DNA of 64,000 nt, taken from IMG/VR virus record IMGVR_UViG_3300047323_000676; one strand, given 5' to 3'. How positions within the stretch are numbered: the first letter of the stretch is position 1; every line of letters starts with the position of its first letter. The notes below the pieces were generated by a model. That model searched no databases, was not told the origin of the DNA, and saw only the letters and a program-made list of their open reading frames with translations. Origin of the DNA: an uncultured virus (IMG/VR IMGVR_UViG_3300047323_000676). Taxonomy: Duplodnaviria; Heunggongvirae; Uroviricota; Caudoviricetes. Of the stretch, positions 5,639-51,287 are shown piece after piece. The translations under genes were made by a program, and so were the position numbers.

Positions 5639-6280
5639 TTATAATTTTAATTTTTTATTTGAATCATATTTATCATCCAATTCATGTTCAAGTTCTCTAT
5701 TGAGATGATAAATATCAATAGCTTTGTTTCTCTCAGCCTGCTCTTGATAATAAGCCCAAAATGGTGGTTCAACTATAGATATATGGAAAACAGTTGCGTA
5801 TCCATTTAACTTATAAGGTTTCCAATTAGTTAAATCACCTTCAAATTGTGCATCTGAAAACATAAATCCCATATCAATTACATTTGAAACATTCCACTGT
5901 GAAATGTCACCTTTAAATTTAGATTTATAAAACATTTCTCGCATGTTTATAACACTAGAAGTATCCCACTTGGAAATATCTCCATTAAATTTTGATCTGG
6001 TGAATAAACTAGACATATCCTTAACCTTAGATACATTCCATTTAGAGATATCACCATTAAAATTTGAACCGTTAAACATAGCACTCATAAATTCTACATT
6101 AGAAGTATCCCACTGAGATATATCTCCATTGAATCCAATATTAGTGAAAAGTGAGCTCATATCTGTAACTTTACTTATATCTATATGGTTTAAATCACAA
6201 TGGTTTCCATGTAAAGTAATTTCTTTTTCAATTAAATTTCTGAGATGTTTTTTATTATTGGCAATGATTATAGGCTTCAT
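5639..6280 (-). CDS. DUF285/BspA-like leucine-rich repeat protein
   Basis: FNGDISxWDxSxVxxMxxMF repeats; shared N-terminal CDLNHID; conserved tail. Confidence 0.85.
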
Positions 6281-6987
6281 ATTTTTAATTTTTTTGTATG
6301 GTTTATATACGGAATACTTAATTCCTTATCTAGTTCTTTAACAAGAATATACTTATCAATAGCATTAACTCGTTCTTGGTTATCTTCTATTTGTGCCCAA
6401 TATGGAATAGCTAAAGTAGAAAAAGCATTATATAAACTTTCTAATTTATATGGTTTCCAATCAGATAAATCATTATTGAATGAAGAATTTAAAAACATTA
6501 GATTCATATTTTCAACCTTGGAAACATTCCATTTGCTAATATCACCGTTAAACTTAGATTTTGTAAACATTGCATTCATTAATTTAACCTTGGATGTATT
6601 CCAATTAGAAATATCACCATTAAATTCAGAATTACTAAACATACTTATCATTCCCTCCACTTTAGAGGTTTTCCATTTAGAGATATCGCCATTAAATATG
6701 GAATATGAGAACATATTATTCATATGTTTAACCTTAGAGGTTTTCCATTGGGAAATATCGCCATTAAACTTAGAGTTATTAAACATGCCAGTCATAAACT
6801 CAACATTTGAAGTATTCCATTTTGAGATATTTCCATTAAATTTAGAATTTTCAAAAACATAACTTAAGTCAGTTATTTTAATTATATCAATATGATTTAA
6901 ATCACATTCAAATCCATTAAGTTCAATTTCTTGTTTAATCAATTCTTTTAAATGTTTTTTATCTATAGCAGTAATTATAGGCTTCAT
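6277..6987 (-). CDS. DUF285/BspA-like repeat protein
   Basis: FNGDISKW repeats; ATGA overlap with next gene. Confidence 0.85.
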
Positions 6988-7105
6988 AATATTTGTCTTT
7001 GTAGTAGATACATTTTATCAAATGAAATTTAATTAACAATATAAAAAATATCTTGATTTATTAATTAACAAGAGTAAAATTAGGCTACTTTATGAAAGAT
7101 AAAAT

Positions 7106-7918
7106 ATGTCACTAACTTCAGAGCTAAAACAAGCAAACTCAGCAGTTTCACAATTTTTTAATTATTTTAATTTTAATGATTTAATTAAGAGTGAGAATCT
7201 TCAACTGAGAAATAGTGAAACATTACTTCCTGAGAACCAAGAAGCATATCCTTGGTCTTTAGTTGGTCATGTTACAGAATATCTTATTGATTTATATCTT
7301 GGTGTAAGTATTGAAACTCTTTTTCCAATGCGATATTACTCTAATAAAAGAGATAGCTTTTATTTAAATACTGTAAGCCAATACTCTCAGAATAAATTGA
7401 AAGATTTGCCAAAAATTATTAATATCTTATTTCAACTAGCTCAAGTTGAAGCTGCACTAAGAAGTAAGCAGCCAACTCCTCAATTTAAAAATGCTTCTGA
7501 TATTGTAGTGAAAGATGTTTCTAAAATTTTTAATAAGGTTAAAGCTAATCCTTATTTAAATCCAAAAGTTTCTTACAAATACAATCCTTTATTTCAATTA
7601 GGTAATTTAGTTGGTGGTGCTGATGCAGATTTAATTAAGCAAGAACTTAACAATAACACTCTCATTGATTTTAAAACATCAAAAGAGGCCAAAATAAATA
7701 ATTCAATGATTCATCAATTATTAGGTTACTACTTTTTAGATAATCCTTCTCAATATCAATTAAAAAATCTTGCTATTTATTTAACTCGTCAGGATAGAGT
7801 TTTAACTTGGGATATTAAATCATTAATTTGTGATCATAGCCATTTTACTGATTTGAAGTCTGCTCGTAGTGAGTTCATAGCTAATCTATATTCACCAAAC
7901 AAATTAAAACCAAAATAA
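7106..7918 (+). CDS. PD-(D/E)xK nuclease-like protein
   Basis: GGADADLI...LIDFKTS...QLLGY motifs typical of RecB-like PD-(D/E)xK nucleases. Confidence 0.6.
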   Translation: MSLTSELKQANSAVSQFFNYFNFNDLIKSENLQLRNSETLLPENQEAYPWSLVGHVTEYLIDLYLGVSIETLFPMRYYSNKRDSFYLNTVSQYSQNKLKDLPKIINILFQLAQVEAALRSKQPTPQFKNASDIVVKDVSKIFNKVKANPYLNPKVSYKYNPLFQLGNLVGGADADLIKQELNNNTLIDFKTSKEAKINNSMIHQLLGYYFLDNPSQYQLKNLAIYLTRQDRVLTWDIKSLICDHSHFTDLKSARSEFIANLYSPNKLKPK

Positions 7919-8560
7919 TTATAATTTTATCTTTTTAGTTTCTTTAAGATTTTTATTTAATTCATTTTTTAGTTCTTTATTTAATTGGTAAGCAACAATA
8001 GCTTTATTTCTAGATTCGTTATCTTTATATTCTAACCAATAAGGTGTAGGAGCTAAACAATTAGAAAGTAGGTTTTCCATATATATTAATGAATATGGTT
8101 TCCAATTACTAATATCTTGACAAAATTTAGAATTATAGAACATATGCGACATATTTTTAACATTAGATACATCCCATTTAGATATGTCGCCATTAAAATC
8201 AGAAATTGAAAACATCTCATCCATTTCTTCTACACTAGATACATTCCATTGTGAAATATCACCATTAAATGGGCTTTCTAAGAAAAGGCAACCCATGCTT
8301 TTTACTTTTGAAACATTCCATTTAGAGATATCTCCATTAAACTTTGATTGGTAAAACATACCACTCATTTGTACAACATTAGAAACATCCCATTTTGAAA
8401 TATCCCCATTAAAATCTATTTGATAGAAAAGATTATCAAAACTTTTAATATTGGAAACATCAATGTGATTTAAATCACATTCTCTTCCATTTATCTCAAT
8501 TTCATTTTTAATTAAATGGTCTAGATGGTCCCTATTTTGAGCTATTATTTTAAGTTTCAT
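7919..8560 (-). CDS. DUF285/BspA-like repeat protein
   Basis: [13 protein letters not shown] repeats, conserved tail. Confidence 0.85.
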
Positions 8561-9408
8561 ATTTTAATTTTTTTAATCGTACTATTATTAACATTTAATT
8601 CCACATCTAATTTTTTATTTAATAAATAATTATTAATAGCTAAATCTCTCTTATCTTTATTTTCAATTAGTGCCCAATAAGGTATTGGTGCGGAACATCC
8701 TGTAAAAGTGTTATTTAAACTAACCAAACTATATGGTTTCCAATTGCTAATATCATGATTAAATTTAGCAAAAGAAAACATGTTATCTATTATTTCTAAT
8801 TTTTTTACATTCCATTTGGATATATCACCATCAAATTCTGACTCGGAAAACATATTTTCCATATTCGTTACATTAGATACATCCCACTTTGAAATGTCAC
8901 CATTAAAGACTGATCCTTTAAACATAAATCCCATCTCGTTAACCTTGCTAACTTGCCAATTTGATATATTTTGATTAAAAATAGAATCATTAAACATATA
9001 AAGCATATTTTTAACTTTTGATACATTCCACTTAGAAATGTCACTATTAAAAACTGACCCTTTAAACATAAAACACATATCTCTAACATTAGAAGTATTC
9101 CACTGTGAAATATCTCCATTAAACTGAGATTCGCTAAACATAGAATGCATATTTTTTACTTTAGATACATTCCACTTTGAAATGTCACCATTAAATTTTG
9201 ATTGAGTGAACATACTAGTCATATCTGTTACATTTGATACATCCCATTGCGATATATCTCCATTAAATTCCGTGCAACCAAATAAGTAACTCATATCTTT
9301 AATTTTTGACACATCAATATGATTTAAATCGCATTGATTACCTTTTAATTTAATTTCTTCACGAACTAAATCCCACAAATGATCTTTATTTTTTGCAATT
9401 ATCTTCAT
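8557..9408 (-). CDS. DUF285/BspA-like repeat protein
   Basis: Longest repeat tract of the family here. Confidence 0.85.
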
Positions 9409-10124
9409 ATTTTTACCTTTTTCATTAAAAAGTTGTTATCATTTTTCTTTAAATCAGTGCTTAATTCTTTTGTAAGCAAATAATTATTAATAGCCAAATT
9501 TCTATTATCTTTATCTGCAATTAAAGCCCAATAAGGTTTTGTTGTTGGGTTATCATAAAACATTCCAGTACAAACAAGAAGACTATATGGCTGCCAGTCA
9601 GATAAATCTTTATTAAATTTTGCTTCTTCAAACATTTGTCTCATATATTTTACATTAGAAACATCCCACCCTAAAATATCTCCGTTAAAAGAAGAATTTA
9701 AAAACATATAATCCATATCTTCAACCTGAGATATATTCCACTTAGATATGTCTCCTTCAAAATCTGAATAAGAAAACATATGACACATATTTTTTACCTG
9801 AGACACATCCCATTTTGAAATATCCGTATTAAACTTAGACCATGAAAATAAAGACTCCATATCAGTTACATTAGATGTATCCCATTTTGAAATATCACCG
9901 TTAAATTTACAACAATGGAACATAGCATGCATAACTTTTACATTAGAAACATCCCATTGTGATATTTCACCATTAAAATCAGTGCTATCGAATAATGCAG
10001 TCATATCTTTAACCCGACTAACATCTATATGATTAAGGTCACATTGGTTTCCATTTAATTCAATTTCTTGTCTAATTAAATCTTTTAAGTGATGATTATC
10101 TATAGCAATAATTTTTGACTTCAT
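9405..10124 (-). CDS. DUF285/BspA-like repeat protein
   Basis: Repeats plus tail [11 protein letters not shown]...KKVKI. Confidence 0.85.
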
Positions 10125-10834
10125 AATTTTATCTTTTTTGTTAAAATATCATTTTTCTTTAAATCAGTGCTTAATTCTTTATTTAACCAATAATTATCAA
10201 TGGCCATAACTCTTTTAATATCATTTTCAATTTCAGCCCAATAAGGTATTGGCGCTTCACAATCATAAAATATTCCTGCTAGAAAACCAAGACTATATGG
10301 CTTCCAATTAGATAAATTTTGATAAAAGTCTGAATCTGCAAACATTTCTCCCATATTTTCAACTTTAGAAACATCCCATTGTGAAATATCACCATTAAAA
10401 CAGGAACTTAAAAACATATACTCCATATCCTCAACTTCAGATGTAATCCATTTAGAAATATCCCCGTTGAAAATTGAATAAGAAAACATATGACACATGT
10501 TTTTTACTTTAGATACATTCCAGTTTGATATATCTAAATCAAATTTAGACCATGCAAATAAAGAATGCATATTAATAACATTAGATGTGTCCCATTTAGA
10601 AATATCACCGTTAAATCTAGAACTATGAAACATACTTTTCATATCTGTAACATTAGAAGTATTCCATTGTGATATGTCACCATTAAAATCAGTACGATAG
10701 AATAATTCAGTCATGTCTGTAACTTTGCTAACATCAATATGATTAAGATCACATTGGTTTCCATTTAATTGAATTTCTTGTCTAGTTAATTCTCTTAAAT
10801 GATAGTGATCTATAGCAATAATTTTTTGTTTCAT
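10121..10834 (-). CDS. DUF285/BspA-like repeat protein
   Basis: Close paralog of 9405..10124. Confidence 0.85.
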
Positions 10835-11610
10835 AATTTTATCTTTTTGTTTGATTTATTTTCATTAACTAACTTTTGTGTCAACTCTTTTTCTAACCAG
10901 TAATTATCAATAGCTATATTGCGCTTACCAATATCTTTAAATTCAAACCAATAAGGTAATGGTTCCTTTTGAAAGAGATTATCTTTGAAAAATAATTTAT
11001 ATGGTTTCCAATCACTTAAATCTTTATTAAAAGGAGATTTATAAAACATACTATTCATGTTTTCAACCTTAGAAACATTCCAATTATGGATGTCAGAATT
11101 AAACTTAGATTTATAAAACATACTTTGCATAGTCACAACATTTGATACATTCCATTGTGAGATATCACCATTAAACTCAGAATCAAAAAACATATAAGAC
11201 ATATTGGTAACATTTGATACATTCCATTGTGAAATATTACTATTAAATTTAGAATTATAAAACATATAACTCATATTTCTAACATTTGCTGTATTCCATT
11301 TTGAAATATCATTATTAAATTTAGAGCCATAAAATAAATCACTCATATCGTTAACATTAGATATATTCCAATTGCTTATATCTTTATTGAACATGGAAAA
11401 TTTAAACATTGCACTCATGTTTTTAACATTAAATGTGTCCCATTGAGAAATATCACCATTAAAATGAGAGTTCTTAAATAAATGACTCATATCTGTAATC
11501 TTAGACACATCAATATGATTTAAGTCACATTCGCTTCCATTTAATTCAATCTCTTTCTGAATTAAATCTGCTAAATGCATTTTACCTCTAGCAATAATTT
11601 TTTGTTTCAT
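10831..11610 (-). CDS. DUF285/BspA-like repeat protein
   Basis: Repeats plus tail; AAGGA SD. Confidence 0.85.
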
Positions 11611-11806: not shown

Positions 11807-13510
11807 ATGAATAATCACGAAATAATAAAGAATGAGTTAACTAGAATTATAACTGAAAGAATATATGATGTTTCCATATTAAAAGGAGAATGGGGGATTG
11901 GTAAAACTTTTCTATGGGAAACAGTGAAAAAAGGAATACTGAATAATCCACAGCTAAATAAAAATTACAGTAATGATTCATTTATTTATATATCACTCTT
12001 CGGTTTAAATTCAATTGATGAAGTTAAAAATAAATTAGTTTTTAGAACAGATTCTAAAAAAAAACTATTTGAAACATTTAAAAGTTTAAAAGAGTTAAAA
12101 CTATTAAATGGATTTTTGCCAGTTTCAGCACTAACTATACCAATAGGCTCAATATTTGAATACTTTATAGATAATTCATTAAAGAATAAAATTATTGTTT
12201 TTGATGATATTGAAAGAAAAAATAATAGTTTTGATATTTTATCTTTACTAGGATTGATAAATCAATTAAAAGCTATGGGTAGTCAGTTCTTAATTATGCT
12301 TAATGAAGAGAAAATAGATGATAATGTCGATAAAAATTGGCACTTATTTAAAGAAAAAATTATTGATATAGAATATAGATTAGATAGCAGTGAAAAATAC
12401 TGTTTTGATATTATTATTAACCATCTAAATAAGAAACAATATGATTTATTAACTCAAATTGAAAAAGAAATAATAGAGGCAGCAATTTTAAACTTAAAAA
12501 TAAAGAATATCCGTATAGGCAGTCTAATCTTTAGAAAATCTATAGAAATTTTAAAGGAATTAAAAAGTCTAATAAAAGAAGAAAATAAAGAATTTTTTTT
12601 CTCCATAATACAAAACATCACTAAAATATTTTATTTATATTACACAACAGAAAATAAAATTAATTTTAATGATATTAATAACTTTATTTCAAAATACTCA
12701 ACTTGGGATGATAGACAGCAAATAGAATACTTCAATAAAATTGATAGCCAGTCTTATCCATTATCTGATAATGATAAATTAGTAATAAACAAATTAGAAG
12801 AAATGAATTTTAGTTTAAATAAAAATATTACATTAATAGTATTAGATTATATTAAAAATGGAATTTTACAAAAAGAATTATTAAATAAGTCATTTTCAAA
12901 TATAGCTGCCGAAATAGATTTATTTAATAACGATTTTGAATTAAATGACTTCTTAATGCAATTATACTTTAATGCCAAAATAACAGAGGAAGACATTACG
13001 GAAAGAATTAATATTTTTTTAACTCTACCGTATAAAGACTATGGCTTACTGCATAAACTTTATATAGTCATGCAACAAATAAATTATGAAATAGAAAAAG
13101 TTATATTTAATAAATTGATAGATTTAATGAGAGAAAAAAAATGGGTTCCATCTGAAAAGATATTAAATGAAAATGCCCAATTTAGAATCCATTTTTTGGC
13201 TTATAATAATACTATTAATCCAATTTTAGAAAACTTAACTCTTAAAAAATTAATTAATGAACACCAGTTTAATTCGCATCAAGTAGAAACCATTTTAAAC
13301 TCTTTATCGGAAAATCAATTAAAAGATCTTTTGCTTAAAGAGGAAAATTTAAGAGAAATCTTAAATTTTATAAAATTTATTACGGATAATAAAAATTTAG
13401 CTAAGTTCAATAAAACATTTGATGACATATGTACATACTTTAAAAATTCAAGTAATCCAGATTACTTAAAAATGAAGCGAGTTTTATTATTATTTACCAT
13501 TAATAAATGA
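11807..13510 (+). CDS. KAP-family P-loop NTPase
   Basis: Walker A GEWGIGKT, YISLFG, Walker B IIVFDDIER. Confidence 0.8.
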   Translation: MNNHEIIKNELTRIITERIYDVSILKGEWGIGKTFLWETVKKGILNNPQLNKNYSNDSFIYISLFGLNSIDEVKNKLVFRTDSKKKLFETFKSLKELKLLNGFLPVSALTIPIGSIFEYFIDNSLKNKIIVFDDIERKNNSFDILSLLGLINQLKAMGSQFLIMLNEEKIDDNVDKNWHLFKEKIIDIEYRLDSSEKYCFDIIINHLNKKQYDLLTQIEKEIIEAAILNLKIKNIRIGSLIFRKSIEILKELKSLIKEENKEFFFSIIQNITKIFYLYYTTENKINFNDINNFISKYSTWDDRQQIEYFNKIDSQSYPLSDNDKLVINKLEEMNFSLNKNITLIVLDYIKNGILQKELLNKSFSNIAAEIDLFNNDFELNDFLMQLYFNAKITEEDITERINIFLTLPYKDYGLLHKLYIVMQQINYEIEKVIFNKLIDLMREKKWVPSEKILNENAQFRIHFLAYNNTINPILENLTLKKLINEHQFNSHQVETILNSLSENQLKDLLLKEENLREILNFIKFITDNKNLAKFNKTFDDICTYFKNSSNPDYLKMKRVLLLFTINK

Positions 13511-13520
13511 ATTTGTATTT

Positions 13521-14162
13521 CTATAATTTTATCTTTTTAATTGGTCTTGTGTTATCATTTAATTCTTTACTTAATTCCTTACTTAAATGATAACTATCAA
13601 TAGCCTTATTTCTAGTTTCCTTATTATCAAATTTAGACCAATAAGGACTAGAGGTATAGGTGCTTGGAACTATATATAAAAATGTTTCAAGATTATATGG
13701 CTTCCAATCGGATAAATCACAATCAACTGAAGAATTTACAAATGCTCGATCCATTGTTTTTACATTAGATATATTCCACTTGGATATATCACCATTAAAC
13801 TTAGAACCATAAAATATCCAATCCATATCCAGGACATTAGATACATCCCAATCCGAAATATTCTGATTGAATTTTGCTGAACAAAATAAACCCTGCATAT
13901 TTAATACTTTAGATACATCCCATTGAGAGATGTTCCCATTAAATTGAGATTCGTAAAACATATAAGAAATATTCTCAACTTTAGACATATTCCACTTAGA
14001 AATATCTCCATTAAATGGACTATGTTGAAATAACTCACTCATATCTGTAATTTCTGATACATTAATATGATTTAAATCACATTGACTGCCATTAAGCTCA
14101 ATTTCCTGTTTAATTAAATCTTTCAAATGGTTTTTATCTTTAGCTATAATCTTATTTTTCAT
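13521..14162 (-). CDS. DUF285/BspA-like repeat protein
   Basis: Repeats plus tail LSKELSKEL...KKIKL. Confidence 0.85.
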
Positions 14163-23651: not shown

Positions 23652-23999
23652 CTAATTTTGGATTATATCTTCTTTACCGTATTGCTCTTTATGTATGACA
23701 GAAGTTCTAATGCAATTTCTATAGTCACCCCAATATGAAGAATGCACTGTCATCCCACCAGCAACCGTTCTTTCTTGAGATTTAGCAATTTTCTTGCATT
23801 GATTAAGTATTGATTCACTTAGTTTTGCTTCTTCAGCCTCAAGTCTTTTTCGGGAAGACTCACCTATATGGTTTAGCATTGATAGATAAAGAGTCATAAA
23901 CAATGTTCCCATAATAAGGAATACAAGGATTTGCACTATTAAAGCTAATAGTTCATTATTTTCTTTTGATTCATTTTGGATTTTTACTTCTTCAGTCAT
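23652..23999 (-). CDS. Single-TM protein, paralog of 23321..23641
   Basis: As above; GGAGG SD. Confidence 0.7.
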   Translation of the reverse strand: MTEEVKIQNESKENNELLALIVQILVFLIMGTLFMTLYLSMLNHIGESSRKRLEAEEAKLSESILNQCKKIAKSQERTVAGGMTVHSSYWGDYRNCIRTSVIHKEQYGKEDIIQN

Positions 24000-24039
24000 G
24001 GCACTGCCTCCTTGTTATTAAAGTTAATTAAAAACATTT

Positions 24040-24131
24040 CGGAAGCAGTGAGATTTGAACTCACGCAGGCTTTTTAGTTCCCCTAACTGTGAAACACAGT
24101 TTCCCTTATGACCAGGCTTGGGTACACTTCC
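24040..24131 (-). pseudogene. Degenerate tRNA-Ser-like gene (anticodon loop UG-UUU-CA, no CCA)
   Basis: Cloverleaf closely related to 25037..25132 but G33/C37, self-pairing loop and no encoded CCA. Confidence 0.7.
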
Positions 24132-24138
24132 ATTAAAA

Positions 24139-24345
24139 CTATTTATTTTTTTTCTTAACGAAAAAATTTTTTACCGCAGGAGCATTAATTACAACCTGAA
24201 CAGTATTTTTATTTACTTCATTACTAGTATCAGTTATGGAATTTTGATTAGCTCTGTTTAATCTTTGCTTCAAAGTATATTCCAAAGCCTTAGAATTAGT
24301 AACACCTAATTCTTTTTTGTCTTTTCCATAAGTAATACGAGCCAT
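24139..24345 (-). CDS. Small basic hypothetical protein within the tRNA operon
   Basis: 68-aa ORF filling the space between tRNA genes. Confidence 0.5.
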   Translation of the reverse strand: MARITYGKDKKELGVTNSKALEYTLKQRLNRANQNSITDTSNEVNKNTVQVVINAPAVKNFFVKKKNK

Positions 24346-24375
24346 AATATATCTTTTTATTTTTATTATTTAATT

Positions 24376-24472
24376 TGGCGGAAGAGGTGGGATTCGAACC
24401 CACGCAGGATGGTTTATATCCTCTAACTGCTTTCGAGGCAGTCCCCTTATAACCAGGCTTGGGTACTCTTCC
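24376..24472 (-). tRNA. tRNA-Ser(CGA)
   Basis: GGAAGAG/CTCTTCC acceptor, ACTGC-CT-CGA-AA-GCAGT, long variable arm, TTCGAAT, G73-CCA. Confidence 0.92.
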
Positions 24473-24480
24473 TTATTCTT

Positions 24481-24633
24481 TTATCTAATTTTTTTCTTAC
24501 CACTTGGTTTCAGAATTTTAGCAGCCTCTTTAGATGACTTTGATGGTTGCCAACTAACAGGACGACCACATCCGATACAATAACGATCACCATGCCATAG
24601 GGTTTGTCCACAAATACAGGGCTTAGATTGCAT
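24481..24633 (-). CDS. Small zinc-ribbon protein not in the track (50 aa)
   Basis: MQSKPCICGQTLWHGDRYCIGCGRPVSW...; AAGGAGA SD. Confidence 0.65.
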   Translation of the reverse strand: MQSKPCICGQTLWHGDRYCIGCGRPVSWQPSKSSKEAAKILKPSGKKKIR

Positions 24634-24654
24634 AATTATATCTCCTTTTTATTA

Positions 24655-24745
24655 TGGCGGAAGCGGGGAGAGTCGAACTCCCAAGGCGCTATTAACACTC
24701 AACTGTTTTCAAGACAGGTACCGTCGCCAATCGGTTTGCGCTTCC
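24655..24745 (-). tRNA. tRNA-Ser(TGA)
   Basis: CTGT-CT-TGA-AA-ACAG, long variable arm, G73-CCA. Confidence 0.9.
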
Positions 24746-24780
24746 ATATTCTTTTTTAAATAAATTACCTACATCTAATC

Positions 24781-24872
24781 TGGCGGAAAAGGTGGGATTC
24801 GAACCCACGAGAGGGTATTAACCTCTGACGATTTAGTAGATCGTTGCTATAAGCCAGCTCTGCCACTTTTCC
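24781..24872 (-). tRNA. tRNA-Ser(ACT)
   Basis: ACGAT-CT-ACT-AA-ATCGT, long variable arm, G73-CCA. Confidence 0.9.
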
Positions 24873-24908
24873 ATATTCTTTTTAAAATCAACTATTTACA
24901 ACATATTT

Positions 24909-24998
24909 TGGCGGAGAGCCAGGGAGTCGAACCCTGTGACCATGTTTCCATAGTCTACTCATTAGCAGTGAGGCGCCTTACCGTCCGGCCCGCTCTCC
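24909..24998 (-). tRNA. tRNA-Ser(GCT)
   Basis: CTCA-CT-GCT-AA-TGAG, long variable arm, G73-CCA. Confidence 0.9.
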
Positions 24999-25036
24999 AA
25001 ATTCTTCCATAACTATTTACAACTATAAATTTAAAC

Positions 25037-25132
25037 TGGTGGAAGCGGTGAGATTCGAACTCACGCAGGCTTTTTAGGTCCCCTAGCTGCTTTCAAAACA
25101 GCCCCCTTATAGCCGGACTTGGGTACACTTCC
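25037..25132 (-). tRNA. tRNA-Ser(TGA) with A73 discriminator
   Basis: GCTGT-TT-TGA-AA-GCAGC; ends CGCTTCC-A-CCA. Confidence 0.85.
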
Positions 25133-25160
25133 ATAAATTTTTAAAAACTACATCATATAC

Positions 25161-25255
25161 TGGCGGTGAGTGTGGGATTCGAACCCACGGCCCTCTTTAT
25201 GGGAGAACGATTTCTTAGCAGGAAATTGCCTTAAACCTAACTCAGCCAACTCACC
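25161..25255 (-). tRNA. tRNA-Ser(GCT)
   Basis: ATTTC-CT-GCT-AA-GAAAT, long variable arm, G73-CCA. Confidence 0.92.
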
Positions 25256-25291
25256 AAATTCTTTTTTAAATAAACAACTTACATCTAAAAC

Positions 25292-25379
25292 TGGCGGAAA
25301 AGGTGAGATTCGAACTCACGGAGCCTTGCGACTCGACAGTTTTCTAGACTGTTCTCGTAAACCACTTGAGTACTTTTCC
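25292..25379 (-). tRNA. tRNA-Ser(AGA)
   Basis: ACAGT-CT-AGA-AA-ACTGT, long variable arm, G73-CCA. Confidence 0.9.
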
Positions 25380-25415
25380 TTTAAACCTTTTATTAACTAC
25401 ATTTACTTCATATCT

Positions 25416-25506
25416 TGGCGGAAGATACAGGATTCGAACCTGTGTACCCCTCACGGAGTTCCATCTTTCCAGGATGGCGCAATGGACCAGACTATGCGAA
25501 TCTTCC
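25416..25506 (-). tRNA. tRNA-Ser(GGA)
   Basis: CCATC-CT-GGA-AA-GATGG, long variable arm, G73-CCA. Confidence 0.92.
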
Positions 25507-25610
25507 AAAATTCTTTTAAATCTAATTAGTTAATGCAACAAAAACTTAACATTTCATACACTAACTGATTAAATCTATCTACTATTTCCCTACGGCAACA
25601 CTTACCAAAT

Positions 25611-25645
25611 AAAAAAGCACTCTGTTTTTACGAGAGTGCTTTTTT
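25611..25645 (-). terminator. Attenuator terminator upstream of the tRNA-Ser array
   Basis: Minus strand aaaaaagcactct-cgtaaaaac-agagtgctttttt. Confidence 0.85.
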
Positions 25646-25667
25646 ATAAAATCTCAACTATTTTCAG

Positions 25668-25742
25668 TTAAGCAGCAACACTCCCGTTCATTTCTGAACT
25701 AGATGAAGAACTACTGGATGAACTGAAAGATTTGTTAAACAT
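25668..25742 (-). CDS. Poly-serine leader peptide MFNKSFSSSSSSSSSSEMNGSVAA (24 aa)
   Basis: ATG TTT AAC AAA TCT TTC AGT TCA TCC AGT AGT TCT TCA TCT AGT TCA GAA ATG AAC GGG AGT GTT GCT GCT TAA; lies between promoter and terminator. Confidence 0.85.
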   Translation of the reverse strand: MFNKSFSSSSSSSSSSEMNGSVAA

Positions 25743-25776
25743 TTTTATTATCTCATAAGAATTAATTGATAAACAG

Positions 25777-25805
25777 ATTATTGCATGAAAAAATTCTGCT
25801 GTCAA
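25777..25805 (-). promoter_or_regulatory. Sigma70-type promoter for the leader/tRNA-Ser operon
   Basis: TTGACA-N17-AATAAT with TG extended -10. Confidence 0.75.
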
Positions 25806-25900
25806 CAAGATTTCATAAAAAATTTAAAATATTTCCAAATTTTTCCTTTGTTTCATTTAAACAACATTTACTATTGAGCAACTTATCCAACTAACTATAA

Positions 25901-26332
25901 TTATACTTTAATAAATTTTATATCTTCCAATTCATTTACTTCTAAACTTAAATTAAGCTCTTGATTTAATTTCCTAGAGTCAAACATTTTTCTTACTACC
26001 TCATCTGCACAAAACCAATTTTTTGCATCTGCTTCAGTTTCTTTACCAAGGGAGTTCGCTTCACTGATTTTATAATCAAAAATAAGGTAATTCAGAATTT
26101 CTTTGCAACTTCCCTCAAAATTAAAGCATCTGCAAGTATATTTAAATATTAATTCTTCTTTTTTAGCTAATGTGATATAAATGTAATTATTTGGGTTAAG
26201 CAAATTTTTAATAGAATTAATGTCATTTCTATTAACTTCCTGAATTACCAATAATCTAAAATTTAGCAATTGTGTAAAAGCACTAGACTTAGCTAATTCA
26301 TCTTTTATTCGTTGACGAAGATCTTTTTGCAT
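25901..26332 (-). CDS. Small helical paralog, family A
   Basis: YLIFDYKISE...MFDSRKLNQEL...IKV. Confidence 0.75.
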   Translation of the reverse strand: MQKDLRQRIKDELAKSSAFTQLLNFRLLVIQEVNRNDINSIKNLLNPNNYIYITLAKKEELIFKYTCRCFNFEGSCKEILNYLIFDYKISEANSLGKETEADAKNWFCADEVVRKMFDSRKLNQELNLSLEVNELEDIKFIKV

Positions 26333-26343
26333 AATTATACTTT

Positions 26344-26937
26344 ATGATTATTAGCTGTTATAATATCATATATTATGTAATTTTGATAATGATGAGTAAA
26401 AATAAAAGAAATCTAGAGTTATTGGATAAAAATACTATACGCAATATATTAATAGATGCTTGTAGAGACAATCGCTTATCTATGGTTAAATATATATTAA
26501 CCTCTCGCAAGGTATTTATTAAGCCTGATTCGCATGATGTCTACATGGGATTACTTTATGCAGCAGAACATGGTAATTTAAAGATAGTTGAGTATCTTTT
26601 ATTTAGTAAAGATTTGGAGAAAAATCCTAGCTTTAGCCATCGTGATTCGGCTTATGTAGAAGCGATAAGTAAACAAAACCAATTTCATGTATTAGATTTT
26701 TTGTTAGAAAAGAGGATTTTTGATCCAGAAATTGCATTTGTTGACTGTCACAAGTATGTAGAAGTTCCTACTCCATTGACTTATTATTTAGTTAATAAAT
26801 GTAATGTTACTATTAATGGAGCTATTCAAGAGATTATTGATAGAAATCCTCTTATTGGAAAACTATTTTTGAATAGGGAACTGAATAAAGAGTTAGCTAA
26901 TAAACTAGATGTGTGTAATAAAAAATTTAAGCTTTGA
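26344..26937 (+). CDS. Ankyrin-like paralog, family B
   Basis: DACRDNRLSMVKYILTS...AAEHGNLKIVEYLL; tail RELNKEL...KKFKL. Confidence 0.75.
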   Translation: MIISCYNIIYYVILIMMSKNKRNLELLDKNTIRNILIDACRDNRLSMVKYILTSRKVFIKPDSHDVYMGLLYAAEHGNLKIVEYLLFSKDLEKNPSFSHRDSAYVEAISKQNQFHVLDFLLEKRIFDPEIAFVDCHKYVEVPTPLTYYLVNKCNVTINGAIQEIIDRNPLIGKLFLNRELNKELANKLDVCNKKFKL

Positions 26938-29933: not shown

Positions 29934-30314
29934 TTAAATTTTTATTTTTTTAATTTGTGTATCATTAACCTTTAATTCTTTATTCATATCTTCATTCATT
30001 CTTCTAATCTCAAACATAGCTTCTAGAGCTTTATTTTCATATTTTTCCAATTTTTTATTGTAGACTTCCTCGTCTATTTTGTATTCAAAAACAATATAGT
30101 GAAAGAATTTTTCCACAACTTTAATTCCAGAAGCTCCCGCATAAAAAGATAAGGCTGAATCTAATATATGAAATTCTTTTTGCTCTTTGTTCAATAAAGA
30201 ATAATTTGTATTAAGCATTATTCGTTCAATGGTTTGACTATCATTAGTTCTTATAGCATTTCCAACCTCTTGTTTAAAATAAGTTACAACATTTTTCAAA
30301 TTATAATCATTCAT
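29934..30314 (-). CDS. Small helical paralog, family A
   Basis: YIVFEYKIDE; tail. Confidence 0.75.
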   Translation of the reverse strand: MNDYNLKNVVTYFKQEVGNAIRTNDSQTIERIMLNTNYSLLNKEQKEFHILDSALSFYAGASGIKVVEKFFHYIVFEYKIDEEVYNKKLEKYENKALEAMFEIRRMNEDMNKELKVNDTQIKKIKI

Positions 30315-30317
30315 ATA

Positions 30318-30695
30318 TTAAACCTTTAATTTTTTACCTATTTTATCGTTAGTATTTAGGTCTAAATTTAAATTTTCATTTAAGTTTCTAGATTCAAACA
30401 TATCTTCTACTACTTTGCTTTTATAAGCGTATTCCATTTTATTATAAATATCTTGGCTTACTTTATGTTCAAATATAAAATATTTAAAGAATTCTATACT
30501 TGTTAAATTGAAATAAAGATATGATAAAGCTAGTTCAAAAATTTTCTCTTCTTTTTGAATGATACTTAAATTCGGATAGCTTTCAGGAAGAAGGATAGTT
30601 TTAATCCTGTCATAATCATTGTTTTTAAGTGCCAAACCAATTTCAATATTCAAATAGCTTTCATCAATAAGATATTTTTCATCTTTTTTTGTCAT
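30318..30695 (-). CDS. Small helical paralog, family A
   Basis: YFIFEHKVSQ; tail LNTNDKIGKKLKV. Confidence 0.75.
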   Translation of the reverse strand: MTKKDEKYLIDESYLNIEIGLALKNNDYDRIKTILLPESYPNLSIIQKEEKIFELALSYLYFNLTSIEFFKYFIFEHKVSQDIYNKMEYAYKSKVVEDMFESRNLNENLNLDLNTNDKIGKKLKV

Positions 30696-44412: not shown

Positions 44413-44577
44413 TTATTTATCTTTTTCTTGATTAGGTTGTTCAGCTTTAACAGATTCTTTAAATCCCCTAATTGCTTCACCTAGTTCTTTACCTACATTT
44501 TTAAGTTTTCCGGTGCTAGCAACTAACAAAATGATAATCATTACAACTAGCCAGTGAGCAATACTCATTGTTCCCAT
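44413..44577 (-). CDS. tatA: TatA/TatE-family twin-arginine translocase subunit homolog (54 aa, not in track)
   Basis: MGTMSIAHWLVVMIIILLVASTGKLKNVGKELGEAIRGFKESV... aligns with proteobacterial TatA N-termini; GGAG SD. Confidence 0.8.
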   Translation of the reverse strand: MGTMSIAHWLVVMIIILLVASTGKLKNVGKELGEAIRGFKESVKAEQPNQEKDK

Positions 44578-44689
44578 AGTGTTCTCCAATAGTTAAATCA
44601 TGAATACATAATTACACATTCAACGAGGATGTCAACACTATAATTAAGGTAATTTTTCTTTTTCAATGATTAATCAGAAAAATCTTAAA

Positions 44690-44885
44690 GTTCCCACTTT
44701 ATTCACAAAGGTTAATCTATATCATTCTCACTTAAAATAAAGTAGGATAAACTTCATTCAAGAGTTAAATGTTTATAGAATAAATTCACAAATTCAAGTA
44801 AGTAGAATAACCCTGTGGATATCTTGTTAATATTTTAAGATATTTTATTGTGATGACACATATAGGCGAGTTTGTCCACCCCAAA
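44690..44885. other. Cluster of DnaA-box-like sites, possible replication origin
   Basis: TTATTCACA 44699, TGTGGATAT 44814, TTGTCCACC 44872, AAATTCACA 44782 in non-coding DNA. Confidence 0.35.
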
Positions 44886-45026
44886 ATTTTTAGGTAATAT
44901 CAAAAAGTGTCTCTAAAAATCAACAAAAAATGTTTCAAAAAAAATTTTTGTTTTTTTTCAGAAATTTGCTGTACATAAATAAATTTTAAGGTATAATGAT
45001 TACTCTAAACAGGGAGGTAACAAAAA

Positions 45027-45272
45027 ATGAACCAACACGATAAAGATAATCTGTATTTCCTGCTGTCTGCTTCACCAGAAGTTCTCAAAGATTGGTATGA
45101 TTCGGTTGACGAAGACGACCATCTTTATGCAAGTGAACTGCTTGCTGCATATAAGTTAGAATTAGCTGAAATCCAAGCTCAAAAAGAATTAGAAGATGGC
45201 TTTGAAGAACAAATCGCCGCCATGAACTCCTTCCCCCTAGTGCAATCCCTGTTGAGCAAGATGATTCATTAA
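45027..45272 (+). CDS. Small acidic phage-type hypothetical protein
   Basis: TATAAT upstream, GGGAGG SD, own terminator; codons visibly more C/G-ending than neighbours. Confidence 0.75.
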   Translation: MNQHDKDNLYFLLSASPEVLKDWYDSVDEDDHLYASELLAAYKLELAEIQAQKELEDGFEEQIAAMNSFPLVQSLLSKMIH

Positions 45273-45285
45273 TACCAAATAAAGA

Positions 45286-45313
45286 AAAAGTGACCCTTCG
45301 GGGTCATTTTTTT
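45286..45313 (+). terminator. Intrinsic terminator
   Basis: aaaagtgaccc-ttcg-gggtcatttttttt. Confidence 0.85.
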
Positions 45314-46204
45314 TATCTATCTTCTATAAAAAGACGAACAAAGACCTTAAAGAAATGCCTAAGCATCTTTAATTCAATAAATGGTGCTAATTAAATTTTA
45401 AAAAATAAGAATTGAATCGTAGAAGATTAACGATTCTGAAGAAGGCAATATATAAGTCAAATCCATCTATTGAAGAAGTGCAAAAATTGCTTAATTCTTC
45501 ACGAAATTCTATTTTATTAACTTACAACTTGTCTGTTGAAAAGATGCTAGGCAATGAATAATCAAGCATATATTTATTTATATACAATCTTTTTATATGT
45601 AAAAAATTATCAAATTATTCATAATCTGTTGCCGCTTACACTTCATGAAAAAGTTCTGTTATATAGATCATTCATGAAGGCAATAGGGATATTGTATAGC
45701 TAGGGTAAGCCACAGTCAAAGATATTGTTGATTGTCTGCAATAAGTGTTCGATATCTGCTGAAAAAGTTATATAGATACAAAGAAATTGTAGACTTACAG
45801 CAACACATCAGAAAATGACTTGGACACATTGCAACTTGTTACTAACGATTCAAGTTGAATCAGTTTCAATTATACATTCAAACATGATTTTCAGCAACTT
45901 TTCTAATGTAGATGATGATAAAGGACAACACTCATTTCCTACCTTCAATACAACTCTTTTTGCATTGTTTCATGTAGCAAAAAACTAATTTCATTTATTG
46001 CAATTATATTTTATTAATATTTAACTATAAACAACTAGTTAATACACCACTGTCACTTGTATTTATTTTTACTAAAGATACTAATAGTTTTAAAACAGTA
46101 GATCGATAAAGAATAGATAGATTTTAACTATTATAATTAAGTACAAAGTTAACTTTATTTTATATATTTAAATTTATCTATTGATCTTTATTATTGATTT
46201 TTAT

Positions 46205-46535
46205 ATGCCTTGAATGGCAAAGCTTTCCCTAAGAGAAAACTAAAAAAGCTTTCTGTGCTTCGCCATGCTGAAATGCCCCAGTAACGGCCTTGTTAAATTT
46301 AAGGTTCACAAGTCTCTAGTTCTAGCTCCTTAAAAGCTACACAGCCCGGTCTAGATTTAGCTTCGGTAATAGGTTGCTGTGATCCCATTGTACTATCTTC
46401 GGATTTTATTTATCCTTATTAACCATTAATTCCAACTTTTGCAATAAATAGCTATCTTTCACGATAGGTTGTCAGTTTTGTTTTGCTATTGCCTCAACAT
46501 CTGCATATTTGGTGGTTATCGTATCCCAATCGAGA
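46205..46535. ncRNA. Candidate structured non-coding RNA (family unidentified)
   Basis: ORF-free, locally GC-richer, several stems on the minus strand (CTATC-gtgaaa-GATAG; TAGCTT-ttaag-GAGCTA; TGGCGAAGC...GCTTTGCCA). Confidence 0.3.
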
Positions 46536-46766
46536 AAGAAAGAATAAAAACTAAAGTCTTATCTTTTTAATTGACGCATAAAATACGAAGGCGAGAATTT
46601 ACGGTGTTTTTTGTTCTGCGTCAATAATAATTTTTTGTGTAATCAAAATTTTAAAAAAATGTTTAAAGTGAACAACAATTTATGATTAAAAATATTTTTT
46701 AAATAAATTGAAATTAGGTTTATTTTTTGTATCTTATTAAATAGTTCATAAAAGGAAATTTAAAAA

Positions 46767-48992: not shown

Positions 48993-51287
48993 ATGCAAAT
49001 TACTAAAAGAGATGGTACAAAACAAGAATTAGATTTAAATAAGATACATGCAGTATTAACTTGGGCATGTGAAGGACAAAATGATGATGCATTAAACCCA
49101 ATTAAAGGGGTTTCAATTTCCCAAATTGAAATGAATGCACAGTTACATTTTTATGATGGAATGCCAACAAAGCAAATTCATGAAACATTAATTAAGGCTG
49201 CTTCAGAATTAATATCAGAAGATTTCCCTAACTATGATCAGGTTGCTGCAAGATTGGTTTGGTTTGCAGTTCGTAAAGAAGCTTTCTCTAATAACCTCCC
49301 TCCACATCTTTCAAAAGTTATTCACACTAATATTGCTAATGGTGTTTATTCTAAAGATATTTTAGATCTATATACAGAAGAGGAATTAGATGAGTTAAAC
49401 GGCATGATTGATCATCGTCGTGATGATTTGTTTAAGTATGCTGGTGCTGAACAAATGAGAAAAAAATATTTAGTTCAGAATCGTAAAACAAAAAAGGTTT
49501 TCGAATCATTCCAATATCCTTACATAATGGTTGCAGCCTTGTTATTTGGTAAGTATCCAAAGAATACTCGTATGAAATATGTAAAGAAATATTACGATTT
49601 GATTTCTCAACATTATATTTCTTTACCAACTCCTATTATGGCTGGTTTAAGAACTAAAGTTAAACAGTTTAGTTCTTGCACATTAATTGAGGCTGGTGAT
49701 TCATTAAAATCCATTAATGCTGCTGCTGCTGCTATTGTTGATTATGCATCCCGCAAAGCAGGGATTGGATTAAATATCGGTAGTATTCGTGCTGAAGGTC
49801 AAAAAGTTCGTGGTGGTGATGCTGTTACCACAGGTATGATTCCTTTTGCTAAATATTTTAATGGTGCATTAAAGTCTTGTTCACAAGGTGCAGTTCGTGG
49901 AGCTTCAGCTACATTCAATTATCCTGTATGGCATTTGGAATTTGAGCGCTTGATCGAATTAAAGAATAATAAAGGTACAGAAGAAACTCGTCTAAGAACA
50001 GTTGACTATTGTGTTCACTTAAATAAATTATTCTATGAGCGTTTAGTTAAAAAAGGTGATATTACTTTCTTCAGTCCTGAAGAAGTACCTGATTTATACA
50101 AAGCTTTCTACTCAAGTGATTATAAAGAATTTGAAAGACTTTATAAACATTATGAAAAGAGTCCTAATGTATTTGTCACTAAGAAAACTATGCCTGCGGT
50201 AGAAGTTTTCACAAAGATTATGCAAGAGCGTTTTGAAACTGGTCGTATTTATATTATGAATGCTGACCATGTAAATACTCATGGTTCATTCTATGAAGCT
50301 ATTAAAATGACTAATCTTTGCACTGAAATTACATTACCTACTGAACCAGTAACCTATCCAGGTGATACTCAATATGCTGAAGAAGAAGGATTAATTGCAC
50401 TTTGCACTTTATCAGCAGTTAATTGGGGTAAATTTACACCATTTGGTGAGCTTGATCCTGAAAGCTCTACTCCACAGCGTCAAGAATCTAAATTAAAAGA
50501 TACCTGTGAAATGGCTGTTCGTGGTTTAGATGCTCTATTAGATTACCAGGATTATCCAGTTGAAGCTGCTCGTCGTCATAGTATGAGATACCGTCCATTA
50601 GGTATTGGTATTATTGGTTTTGCTCACTGGTTAGCTAAAGGTAGATTGTATTGGGGTGAAGAAAATACCTTAGCTGAAGTTGAAAAAATGATGGAAAAAA
50701 TGGCTTATTACTTAACTGAAGCTTCTATTGATTTAGCTGAAGAATTTGGAAGTATTCCTGTTAAAACTAAATATCATGATGGTGTTTTCCCAATTGATAC
50801 TTCAGTCCTTAAAGCTAAAACTCAAATGGATTGGGGCTTCTTAAAAGGTAGAGCTAAAAAGCATGGTATTCGTAATGCAACCTTAATGGCATTAATGCCT
50901 TCAGAGACTTCTTCACAGTTGTCAAATGAAACTAATGGTATTGAGCCACCAAGAGATATGGTTTCAATTAAAGGTTCTAAAGAAGGTGTTTTACCACAAA
51001 TCGTTCCTGAATATGCAAAATTAAATGCATTCTATCAAACATTGTGGCAAGTTCCTGCTCAAGATTATTTGAAAACTATTGCCGTTTTACAGAAGTATAT
51101 TGATCAAGCAATCAGCGTTAATACTTCTTATGATCCAAGTAAGGGTGAAATCAAAATGAGTCGTTTAATTGAAGACTTATTATTTGCTTATAAATTAGGT
51201 CATAAAACTCTTTATTACTCTAATACTCGTGATGGTAGTGGAGATGAAGAAGAAGATGATTGTGAATCTGGCGCATGTAAGATTTAA
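48993..51287 (+). CDS. nrdA: Class Ia ribonucleoside-diphosphate reductase alpha subunit
   Basis: ATP cone ITKRDG, QFSSC, TNLCTEI, KTLYY, C-terminal CESGACKI. Confidence 0.95.
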   Translation: MQITKRDGTKQELDLNKIHAVLTWACEGQNDDALNPIKGVSISQIEMNAQLHFYDGMPTKQIHETLIKAASELISEDFPNYDQVAARLVWFAVRKEAFSNNLPPHLSKVIHTNIANGVYSKDILDLYTEEELDELNGMIDHRRDDLFKYAGAEQMRKKYLVQNRKTKKVFESFQYPYIMVAALLFGKYPKNTRMKYVKKYYDLISQHYISLPTPIMAGLRTKVKQFSSCTLIEAGDSLKSINAAAAAIVDYASRKAGIGLNIGSIRAEGQKVRGGDAVTTGMIPFAKYFNGALKSCSQGAVRGASATFNYPVWHLEFERLIELKNNKGTEETRLRTVDYCVHLNKLFYERLVKKGDITFFSPEEVPDLYKAFYSSDYKEFERLYKHYEKSPNVFVTKKTMPAVEVFTKIMQERFETGRIYIMNADHVNTHGSFYEAIKMTNLCTEITLPTEPVTYPGDTQYAEEEGLIALCTLSAVNWGKFTPFGELDPESSTPQRQESKLKDTCEMAVRGLDALLDYQDYPVEAARRHSMRYRPLGIGIIGFAHWLAKGRLYWGEENTLAEVEKMMEKMAYYLTEASIDLAEEFGSIPVKTKYHDGVFPIDTSVLKAKTQMDWGFLKGRAKKHGIRNATLMALMPSETSSQLSNETNGIEPPRDMVSIKGSKEGVLPQIVPEYAKLNAFYQTLWQVPAQDYLKTIAVLQKYIDQAISVNTSYDPSKGEIKMSRLIEDLLFAYKLGHKTLYYSNTRDGSGDEEEDDCESGACKI

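Follow-up and report, generated by a model that had tools for sequence, protein, structure and literature searches.

A probable ribosome-mediated attenuator with ten consecutive serine codons upstream of a tRNA-Ser operon in AT-rich, bacterial-type DNA

Introduction

Why should ten consecutive serine codons of a short open reading frame (ORF) stand 189 nucleotides (nt) ahead of the only tRNA genes in a long stretch of DNA, when all eight of them are tRNA-Ser genes? The question is raised by IMG/VR record IMGVR_UViG_3300047323_000676, of which a stretch of 64,000 nt, here called the window, was analysed. The locus lies on the minus strand and runs from a promoter through the serine-rich leader ORF and an intrinsic terminator into the tRNA-Ser operon. 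An earlier reading of the letters alone (the sequence-only reading) had recognised the trp/his/pheST attenuator layout here, and all of its computable parts held in the present study. We consider that the leader and the terminator probably form a ribosome-mediated transcription attenuator, which would raise transcription of the tRNA-Ser operon when Ser codons are decoded slowly.

The locus has the features by which an attenuator is recognised, namely a promoter-proximal short ORF, cognate control codons, an intervening intrinsic terminator and an antiterminator that is predicted to be freed by a stalled ribosome. The same anatomy was found in one relative, L081, a contig of 2348 nt that gave the one match to a 23-nt leader pattern in one scan of JGI metagenome contigs. 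L081 carries the same promoter-leader-terminator-tRNA module, with promoter, ORF and terminator conserved. The coordinates of all features are collected in Table 1.

Results

The promoter and the serine-codon leader

The promoter TTGACA-N17-AATAAT was present as the sequence-only reading had described it. It matched 11 of the 12 positions of the sigma-70-type consensus, carried a TG before the -10 hexamer and scored highest among the 16 promoter-like sites found in 23900-26500. Promoter-like sites are frequent in AT-rich DNA, and shuffled versions of this segment gave 10.2 +/- 2.6 of them. Judging from the position of the promoter, the transcript would start at about 25770.

The ORF of 24 codons that had been proposed downstream was found with its 10 consecutive and 12 total Ser codons, and the codon tally given for it was correct (AGT x5, TCT x3, TCA x3, TCC x1). 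We propose that the ten consecutive codons are the control codons of the switch. Across all six frames, the 64 kb contained no other run of at least eight residues of a single amino acid, the runners-up being two Leu runs of seven. Based on the trinucleotide frequencies of the window, about 7e-7 Ser runs of ten or more would be expected by chance. When the window was simulated 100 times with a first-order Markov model, Ser runs reached a maximum length of seven. Four Ser codons drawn from both codon boxes are mixed in the run, and three anticodon classes of the downstream array read them; thus the run would report tRNA supply and not serine alone. This composition hints that the leader may monitor the tRNAs themselves.

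The terminator and its alternative pairings

The terminator claimed for 25611-25645 folded at -17.7 kcal/mol and was followed by a U run. It was overlooked by a simple terminator scan, as its loop of 9 nt exceeded the scan's loop limit of 8. The pairing that had been proposed between leader positions 25677-25687 (region 2) and terminator positions 25630-25640 was likewise present, forming a duplex of 11 base pairs (bp), two of them G-U, at -17.1 kcal/mol. Only 2 of 5000 dinucleotide shuffles of the upstream 93 nt equalled this 11-bp complementarity. Among 1375 other 93-nt pieces taken from the window there was no such case, the one match among 1376 being the terminator's own opposite strand. 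The hairpin previously noted at 25686-25699 was also found, and it may serve as a pause or spacer hairpin.

These frequencies bear on whether the arrangement could be a coincidence, in which the terminator just ends an array of paralogous genes upstream while the ORF and the promoter-like site are incidental in AT-rich DNA. The upstream gene 25901-26332 indeed lies on the same strand with no terminator found in between, and promoter-like matches are frequent (16 against 10.2 expected). Against this stand the expectation of about 7e-7 for such a run, the antiterminator complementarity beyond that of shuffles, and the conservation in L081 of the ORF, the Ser run and both promoter hexamers, the latter within a diverged spacer and upstream region. 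We therefore regard a chance arrangement as highly improbable.

The sequence-only reading had proposed folding with and without a ribosome footprint as a check, and the antiterminator formed only with the ribosome on Ser codons 7-15. In these masked folds, the nascent transcript from 25770 to the end of the terminator 5' arm was folded with a footprint extending from -15 to +14 nt relative to the first base of the A-site codon. When the A site was placed on Ser codon 7, 9, 11, 13 or 15, region 2 paired with 25640-25630 over 9-11 bp. With the A site on codon 16, codon 17 or the stop codon, region 2 was covered and the antiterminator was absent. In the fold without a ribosome, no antiterminator was observed; the Ser-codon region paired with 25690-25668 around the stop codon, and part of region 2 lay in an inner hairpin. 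Taken alone, the antiterminator structure had an energy of -20.5 kcal/mol, compared with -17.7 kcal/mol for the terminator.

These folds are consistent with the following sequence of events. Transcription would start at about 25770, and a ribosome would translate the 24-codon leader. When Ser codons are decoded fast, the ribosome at codons 16-24 or at the stop codon would cover region 2, the terminator 25645-25611 would form and the tRNA genes would stay untranscribed. If no ribosome were loaded, region 2 would be held in a hairpin with the Ser-codon region, so that the terminator would form as well. When usable seryl-tRNA runs short, the ribosome would stall on Ser codons 7-15, leaving region 2 free to pair with 25640-25630. 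Once this antiterminator had formed, the polymerase would read through into the eight tRNA-Ser genes. Leader translation, ribosome stalling and regulated read-through are thus what we infer from the anatomy and the predicted pairings.

A second pairing with the terminator was observed in the 5' untranslated region (5' UTR). Positions 25758-25752, including the weak ribosome-binding motif GAG, are complementary to 25634-25628 in the terminator 5' arm and loop. At 25755, L081 and the contigs of runs X2 and X4 have C in place of U; one G-U pair thereby becomes G-C, and the duplex strengthens from -8.6 to -10.6 kcal/mol.

This second pairing raises an alternative in which the terminator is conditional, with the Ser codons secondary, and is governed by a protein or tRNA that binds the leader or by the 5' UTR pairing itself. 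The existence of the pairing, its strengthening in L081, X2 and X4, and the conservation of the leader at the RNA level agree with such control. It fits less well with the preservation of the reading frame, start and stop of the ORF, and with masked folds whose dependence on position is that of a translating ribosome. In addition, no T-box or other riboswitch family was matched in Rfam, either at gathering score or down to E = 10. We consider this alternative unlikely.

Conservation of the module

In L081, the region upstream of the -35 hexamer was 65% identical to the window. Both promoter hexamers were intact (6/6 each), the TG was kept, and the spacer retained its length of 17 while only 8 of its 17 bases were identical. 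That the hexamers are intact although the spacer and the region upstream have diverged indicates selection on the promoter and argues against the whole block being just a recent copy. The 5' UTR was identical at 30 of 33 bases and the leader ORF at 72 of 75, with start, stop, frame and length kept; the three changes lead to S5V and S21R. The sequence-only reading had named a lack of conservation of the Ser codons or of the pairing in relatives as evidence against its proposal. We found the Ser run identical at 30 of 30 bases, the terminator at 35 of 35, and 10 of 11 antiterminator pairs preserved. In masked folds of L081, region 2 paired with the terminator arm for codons 9-15, and the U-to-A change behind S21R extended the pairing of region 2 with the Ser-codon region.

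The segment between the stop codon and the terminator was compared by hand. It differed by three stem substitutions, one inserted loop base and one deleted U, and all 8 bp of the hairpin 25672-25653 survived these one-sided stem changes and the additional loop base. The 13/22 identity obtained for this segment was an artefact of an ungapped alignment across the indel. Downstream of the terminator, 50 of the 55 bases in 25610-25556 (minus strand) were identical in L081, and this stretch held no promoter-like site. Further on, the first tRNA gene of L081 was only 61% identical to the window.

The stretch, or parts of it, occurs in four public runs, one of which may be the source of the window. 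Contigs of the other three, X2, X3 and X4, cover the leader at a likeness of at least 80% (Table 1). Among the differences listed, those in the ORF fell in codon 5 (X2, X3 and X4) and codon 21 (X4) only; one of the nine X3 differences is among those listed, so we make no claim of Ser-run conservation for that contig. Peptide positions 5 and 21 vary among Ser, Ala, Val and Arg, with the run and the RNA pairings kept.

The pattern of conservation also bears on an independent small gene, in which promoter, Ser-rich ORF and terminator would yield a micropeptide or a small RNA, and transcription of the tRNAs would rely on a separate weak promoter or on codon-independent read-through. In favour of such a gene, the unit comes with a strong promoter and a terminator that looks efficient, and its leader lacks a strong Shine-Dalgarno motif. 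Moreover, nucleotide-level conservation spans the whole block and 55 nt past the terminator, which is what an RNA gene would show. Such a gene would leave unexplained both the ten-Ser run before eight tRNA-Ser genes and the complementarity to the terminator arm beyond that of shuffles, and the variable peptide positions 5 and 21 beside a constant run and constant RNA pairings do not favour it. A separate promoter downstream of the terminator, which had been named as evidence against the attenuator, was looked for. No promoter-like site of at least 9/12 was found on the minus strand from 25777 to 23900, which includes the stretch from the terminator to the end of the tRNA array. An independent gene is, in our view, rather unlikely.

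The tRNA-Ser array

The eight tRNA-Ser genes counted earlier were all found by ARAGORN, between 25506 and 24376, with the anticodon order GGA, AGA, GCU, UGA, GCU, ACU, UGA and CGA. Jointly, these anticodons serve all six Ser codons. In the ARAGORN structures every gene had a 7-bp acceptor stem, a long variable arm and an encoded CCA. Six of the eight reached the gathering score of the Rfam tRNA model, 24909..24998 and 24655..24745 not being among them. The identity rules of tRNA-Ser include the discriminator G73, which was present in seven genes, the eighth (25037-25132) having A73. By their sequences, then, the genes appear to be bacterial type II tRNA-Ser genes, with cloverleaf, long variable arm, Ser anticodon and 7-bp acceptor stem throughout and G73 in 7 of 8.

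The tRNAs of the window were 59-81% identical to one another. The AGA and ACU genes of the window were 98% and 99% identical to those of L081, and the other pairs, within or between arrays, ranged from 41 to 81%. In L081, the first gene behind the leader (858-966) was tRNA-like, scoring 29.6 bits with the Rfam tRNA model; it lacked CCA, and 51 inserted nt stood where the anticodon arm is expected. It was followed by tRNA-Ser GGA, AGA, a homolog of the 68-amino-acid (aa) ORF, ACU, GCU and a cut GCU. Taken together, the comparison suggests that the array is a mosaic that differs between the window and L081.

The AGA and ACU tRNA-Ser genes, the two best conserved between the window and L081, carry A at position 34. 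A34 is unusual in bacterial tRNA-Ser. The two small ORFs of the operon, of 50 and 68 aa, gave no family match in Pfam, PHROGs, NCBIfam or PADLOC.

Table 1. Features of the locus and matching contigs, in window coordinates unless stated otherwise.
Feature	Position	Strand	Remarks
Promoter	25777..25805	minus	-35 TTGACA 25805-25800; 17-nt spacer; TG 25785-25784; -10 AATAAT 25782-25777
Leader ORF MFNKSFSSSSSSSSSSEMNGSVAA	25742-25668	minus	24 codons and stop; 12 Ser codons
Ten-Ser run	25724-25695	minus	codons 7-16; AGU x4, UCA x3, UCU x2, UCC x1; switch region 1
Small hairpin GUUCA-GAAA-UGAAC	25699-25686	minus	overlaps last Ser codon; identical in L081
Antiterminator 5' strand, region 2	25687-25677	minus	leader codons 19-22
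8-bp hairpin including stop codon	25672-25653	minus	nested in antiterminator loop
Intrinsic terminator, regions 3 and 4	25645-25611	minus	stem 25644-25612, including A-U pairs with U run
Antiterminator 3' strand	25640-25630	minus	within terminator: 5' arm and three loop bases
tRNA-like gene remnant	25530..25564	minus	two acceptor-stem halves left; L081 has 75 extra bases here
tRNA-Ser(GGA)	25416..25506	minus	ARAGORN, Rfam
tRNA-Ser(AGA)	25292..25379	minus	ARAGORN, Rfam; 98% identical to L081 copy (L081 631-718)
tRNA-Ser(GCU)	25161..25255	minus	ARAGORN, Rfam
tRNA-Ser(UGA), A73	25037..25132	minus	ARAGORN, Rfam
tRNA-Ser(GCU)	24909..24998	minus	ARAGORN
tRNA-Ser(ACU)	24781..24872	minus	ARAGORN, Rfam; 99% identical to L081 copy (L081 238-330)
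tRNA-Ser(UGA)	24655..24745	minus	ARAGORN
50-aa ORF	24481..24633	minus	inside array; two CxxC pairs; strong Shine-Dalgarno motif
tRNA-Ser(CGA)	24376..24472	minus	ARAGORN, Rfam
68-aa ORF	24139..24345	minus	array end; homolog within L081 array
Contig of run X2	25405-25834		12 substitutions, 7 gaps
Contig of run X3	25585-25740		9 substitutions, 0 gaps
Contig of run X4	25579-25786		12 substitutions, 3 gaps

Nature and neighbourhood of the window

A Shine-Dalgarno-like 4-mer was observed at -18 to -4 in 34 of 86 ORFs, compared with 8% of random 15-mers, and at -48 to -34 in just 2 of 86. Among same-strand neighbour genes, 11 of 58 overlapped by 1 or 4 nt. Shine-Dalgarno use and overlapping genes make coupled transcription and translation plausible.

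The GC content was 23-36% in 2-kb segments and about 25% outside the tRNA block, and one protein of the window lies on a contig of 2,230,803 bases. The window encodes TatA (E = 3.6e-20; tatA at 44413-44589), serine hydroxymethyltransferase and Sir2, as well as many ankyrin, DUF285 and DUF4116 genes. Its ribonucleotide reductase (RNR) large subunit (48993-51287) resembles E. coli NrdA, with 795 bits against about 206 bits for eukaryotic enzymes. The top match of the serine hydroxymethyltransferase in species genomes was 61% identical, and five of those genomes have RNRs just 29-34% identical. No capsid, terminase, portal, integrase or transposase was matched by the 38 + 29 proteins scanned against Pfam or the 29 scanned against PHROGs. 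Because of the prokaryotic expression signals, the bacterial-type proteins and the lack of a phage marker among the scanned proteins, we treat the window as part of an AT-rich, bacterial-type chromosome of an uncultured organism. The sequence-only reading had spoken of an element's own tRNA-Ser set; that wording was not supported, as neither mobile-element nor phage markers were found among the proteins scanned and the DNA looks like a bacterial chromosome.

Two viral origins were considered and rejected. For a phage, a search of phage records for distant DNA likeness matched single tRNAs only, and no record covered 80% of the query. The neighbouring proteins had no relatives in viral contigs, the exact terminator and leader pattern were absent there, and the RNR relatives in those contigs were just 46-51% identical. 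A giant virus had been suggested by the GC content of 25%, the ankyrin repeats and the many metagenomic relatives; it was rejected in view of the Shine-Dalgarno enrichment, the 4-nt overlaps, tatA, the CCA ends and the E. coli-type NrdA. A precursor of a ribosomally synthesised and post-translationally modified peptide, or tRNA-dependent peptide chemistry, was set aside as well, since no maturase-like neighbour was found and the only hint, a match far below threshold, scored 16.8 bits against a cut-off of 600.

Several further observations concern the neighbouring genes. A block of tandem paralogs on the minus strand occupies 44331-25901, so that its last gene borders the upstream side of the leader. 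Its members have about 105-215 aa, mostly about 125 aa, with many 4-nt overlaps and some ankyrin repeats; two distant members were 26% identical. The paralogs 29934-30314 and 30318-30695 have identical 30-nt upstream regions, and the gene 25901-26332, directly upstream of the leader, carries the C-terminal motif of the family. Beside tatA, about 2.2 kb at 44600-46760 contain no ORF longer than 81 aa and no Rfam match at gathering scores. Eight DUF285 genes lie in 5639-11610 and 13521-14162, five of them consecutive with 4-nt overlaps. A Pfam scan covering the genes other than the tandem members at 9405-10834 confirmed seven. A 567-aa protein (11807-13510) matches PHROG 4740 (1.4e-33) and the candidate defence family PDC-S49 (2.3e-18), and its relatives carry a KAP NTPase domain. 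The RNR at 48993-51287 has many metagenomic relatives at 59-94% identity, several with intein domains; the copy in the window is without one.

Discussion

Relation to known attenuators

The enterobacterial leaders hisL, trpL, pheL, leuL, thrL and ilvL share the plan found here, with a short ORF near the promoter that carries control codons in a row, hairpins 1:2, 2:3 and 3:4 that exclude one another, and a terminator whose fate is decided by ribosome position. The hisL leader has seven consecutive His codons. These leaders control amino-acid biosynthesis genes, whereas the serine leader precedes tRNA genes and two small ORFs. The pheM leader controls pheST, which encodes the phenylalanyl-tRNA synthetase of E. 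coli. Like the serine leader, pheM places an attenuator over a translation component that matches its control codons. Read-through at pheM raises charging capacity, the target being a synthetase, whereas the target of the serine leader would be a tRNA set. To our knowledge, the described leader-peptide attenuators have only amino-acid biosynthesis or synthetase genes as targets, a rule from which the serine leader would depart.

Codon choice also differs from the classical pattern. According to the excerpts of Elf and Ehrenberg (PMC1183508), classical leaders favour the single codon whose reader is the first to lose its charging, and hypersensitivity results from a large number of control codons. 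The serine leader has many control codons and a mixture of AGU, UCA, UCU and UCC in place of the one sensitive codon described in those excerpts.

The T-box resembles the present system in coupling the state of a specific tRNA to terminator read-through via an antiterminator. It binds uncharged tRNA directly and needs no translation, whereas the serine leader has a conserved ORF. At gathering scores, Rfam matched tRNAs only. The permissive search of 25500-25900 gave 16 matches up to E = 10, none of them a T-box. Two leader-peptide families were among the matches: the first was Thr_leader (RF00506), with 29.9 bits and E = 0.00087, and the fourth was Phe_leader (RF01859), with 23.4 bits, both below the gathering score of 55; Thr_leader scored 27.4 bits in L081. 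These scores appear to reflect a likeness of architecture, not membership of either family.

The sequence-only reading knew of no described leader-peptide attenuator that senses serine or controls tRNA genes. A full-text literature search agreed, finding neither leader-peptide attenuation of tRNA genes nor serine-codon leaders in the text portions it returned. Thus tRNA genes as the target of an attenuator seem new to the searchable literature; the system would work like hisL or pheM while standing outside the curated leader families.

Points that weigh against the attenuator

Several results count against a ribosome-mediated attenuator at this locus. The terminator formed in every full-length fold, so the switch must be kinetic and decided during transcription, as in classical systems. 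The outcome of the masked folds hinges on the assumed footprint of -15/+14 nt. The ribosome-binding motif of the leader is a weak GAG; yet 52 of the 86 ORFs in the window are without a Shine-Dalgarno-like 4-mer. In L081, the U-to-A change at the position of 25680 (S21R) breaks one of the 11 antiterminator pairs, and the best duplex there consists of 7 bp, a 3-nt bulge and 4 bp at -13.6 kcal/mol, which 40 of 5000 shuffles equalled. With the ribosome on codon 7, the masked fold of L081 gave no antiterminator. There is one full relative, with no synonymous change in the Ser run, and its conservation could partly be that of a recently shared block. The comparative support thus appears real but thin. 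Weak promoters may also lie inside the tRNA array. From the physiological side, extra tRNA production would not relieve serine starvation.

What the switch may be for

Sets of divergent tRNA genes are known from phages, where, as far as the excerpts of the sources state, they evade defences that target tRNAs (PMC10264068, PMC11464382, PMC11555353). These sets resemble the serine array as clusters of accessory, divergent tRNA genes. They are phage genes, and the excerpts mention no codon-sensing leader, whereas the serine array is devoted to one amino acid and lies in a window with no phage or mobile marker. A title cited in the bacterial Schlafen paper PMC13056530, of which excerpts were available, states that eukaryotic Schlafen cleaves type II tRNAs. 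This might bear on why Ser tRNAs would be targeted.

It is possible, and we put it forward tentatively, that divergent tRNA-Ser genes serve a bacterial-type genome as a fast-evolving reserve operon, placed under a sensor that works by ribosome stalling. Damage to the working tRNA-Ser pool, or its depletion, would induce this operon; possible causes are nucleases or modifying toxins recognising tRNAs with long variable arms. Lost tRNAs would thus be replaced by an inducible response, and the genes of the operon would be the first tRNA genes regulated by the decoding of their own codons.

If the ribosome-mediated attenuator is confirmed, tRNA genes would receive direct feedback from how fast their own codons are decoded. 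The supply of tRNA would then be a regulated quantity and not merely one linked to growth rate, and serine would join the amino acids sensed by leader peptides. The codon mixture from both boxes and the mosaic, divergent tRNA set suggest a sensor of tRNA integrity, not of serine, which would tie the finding to toxins and defence systems aimed at tRNAs. As a module of about 200 nt with an E. coli-like promoter, the leader could act as a compact sensor of tRNA-Ser function.

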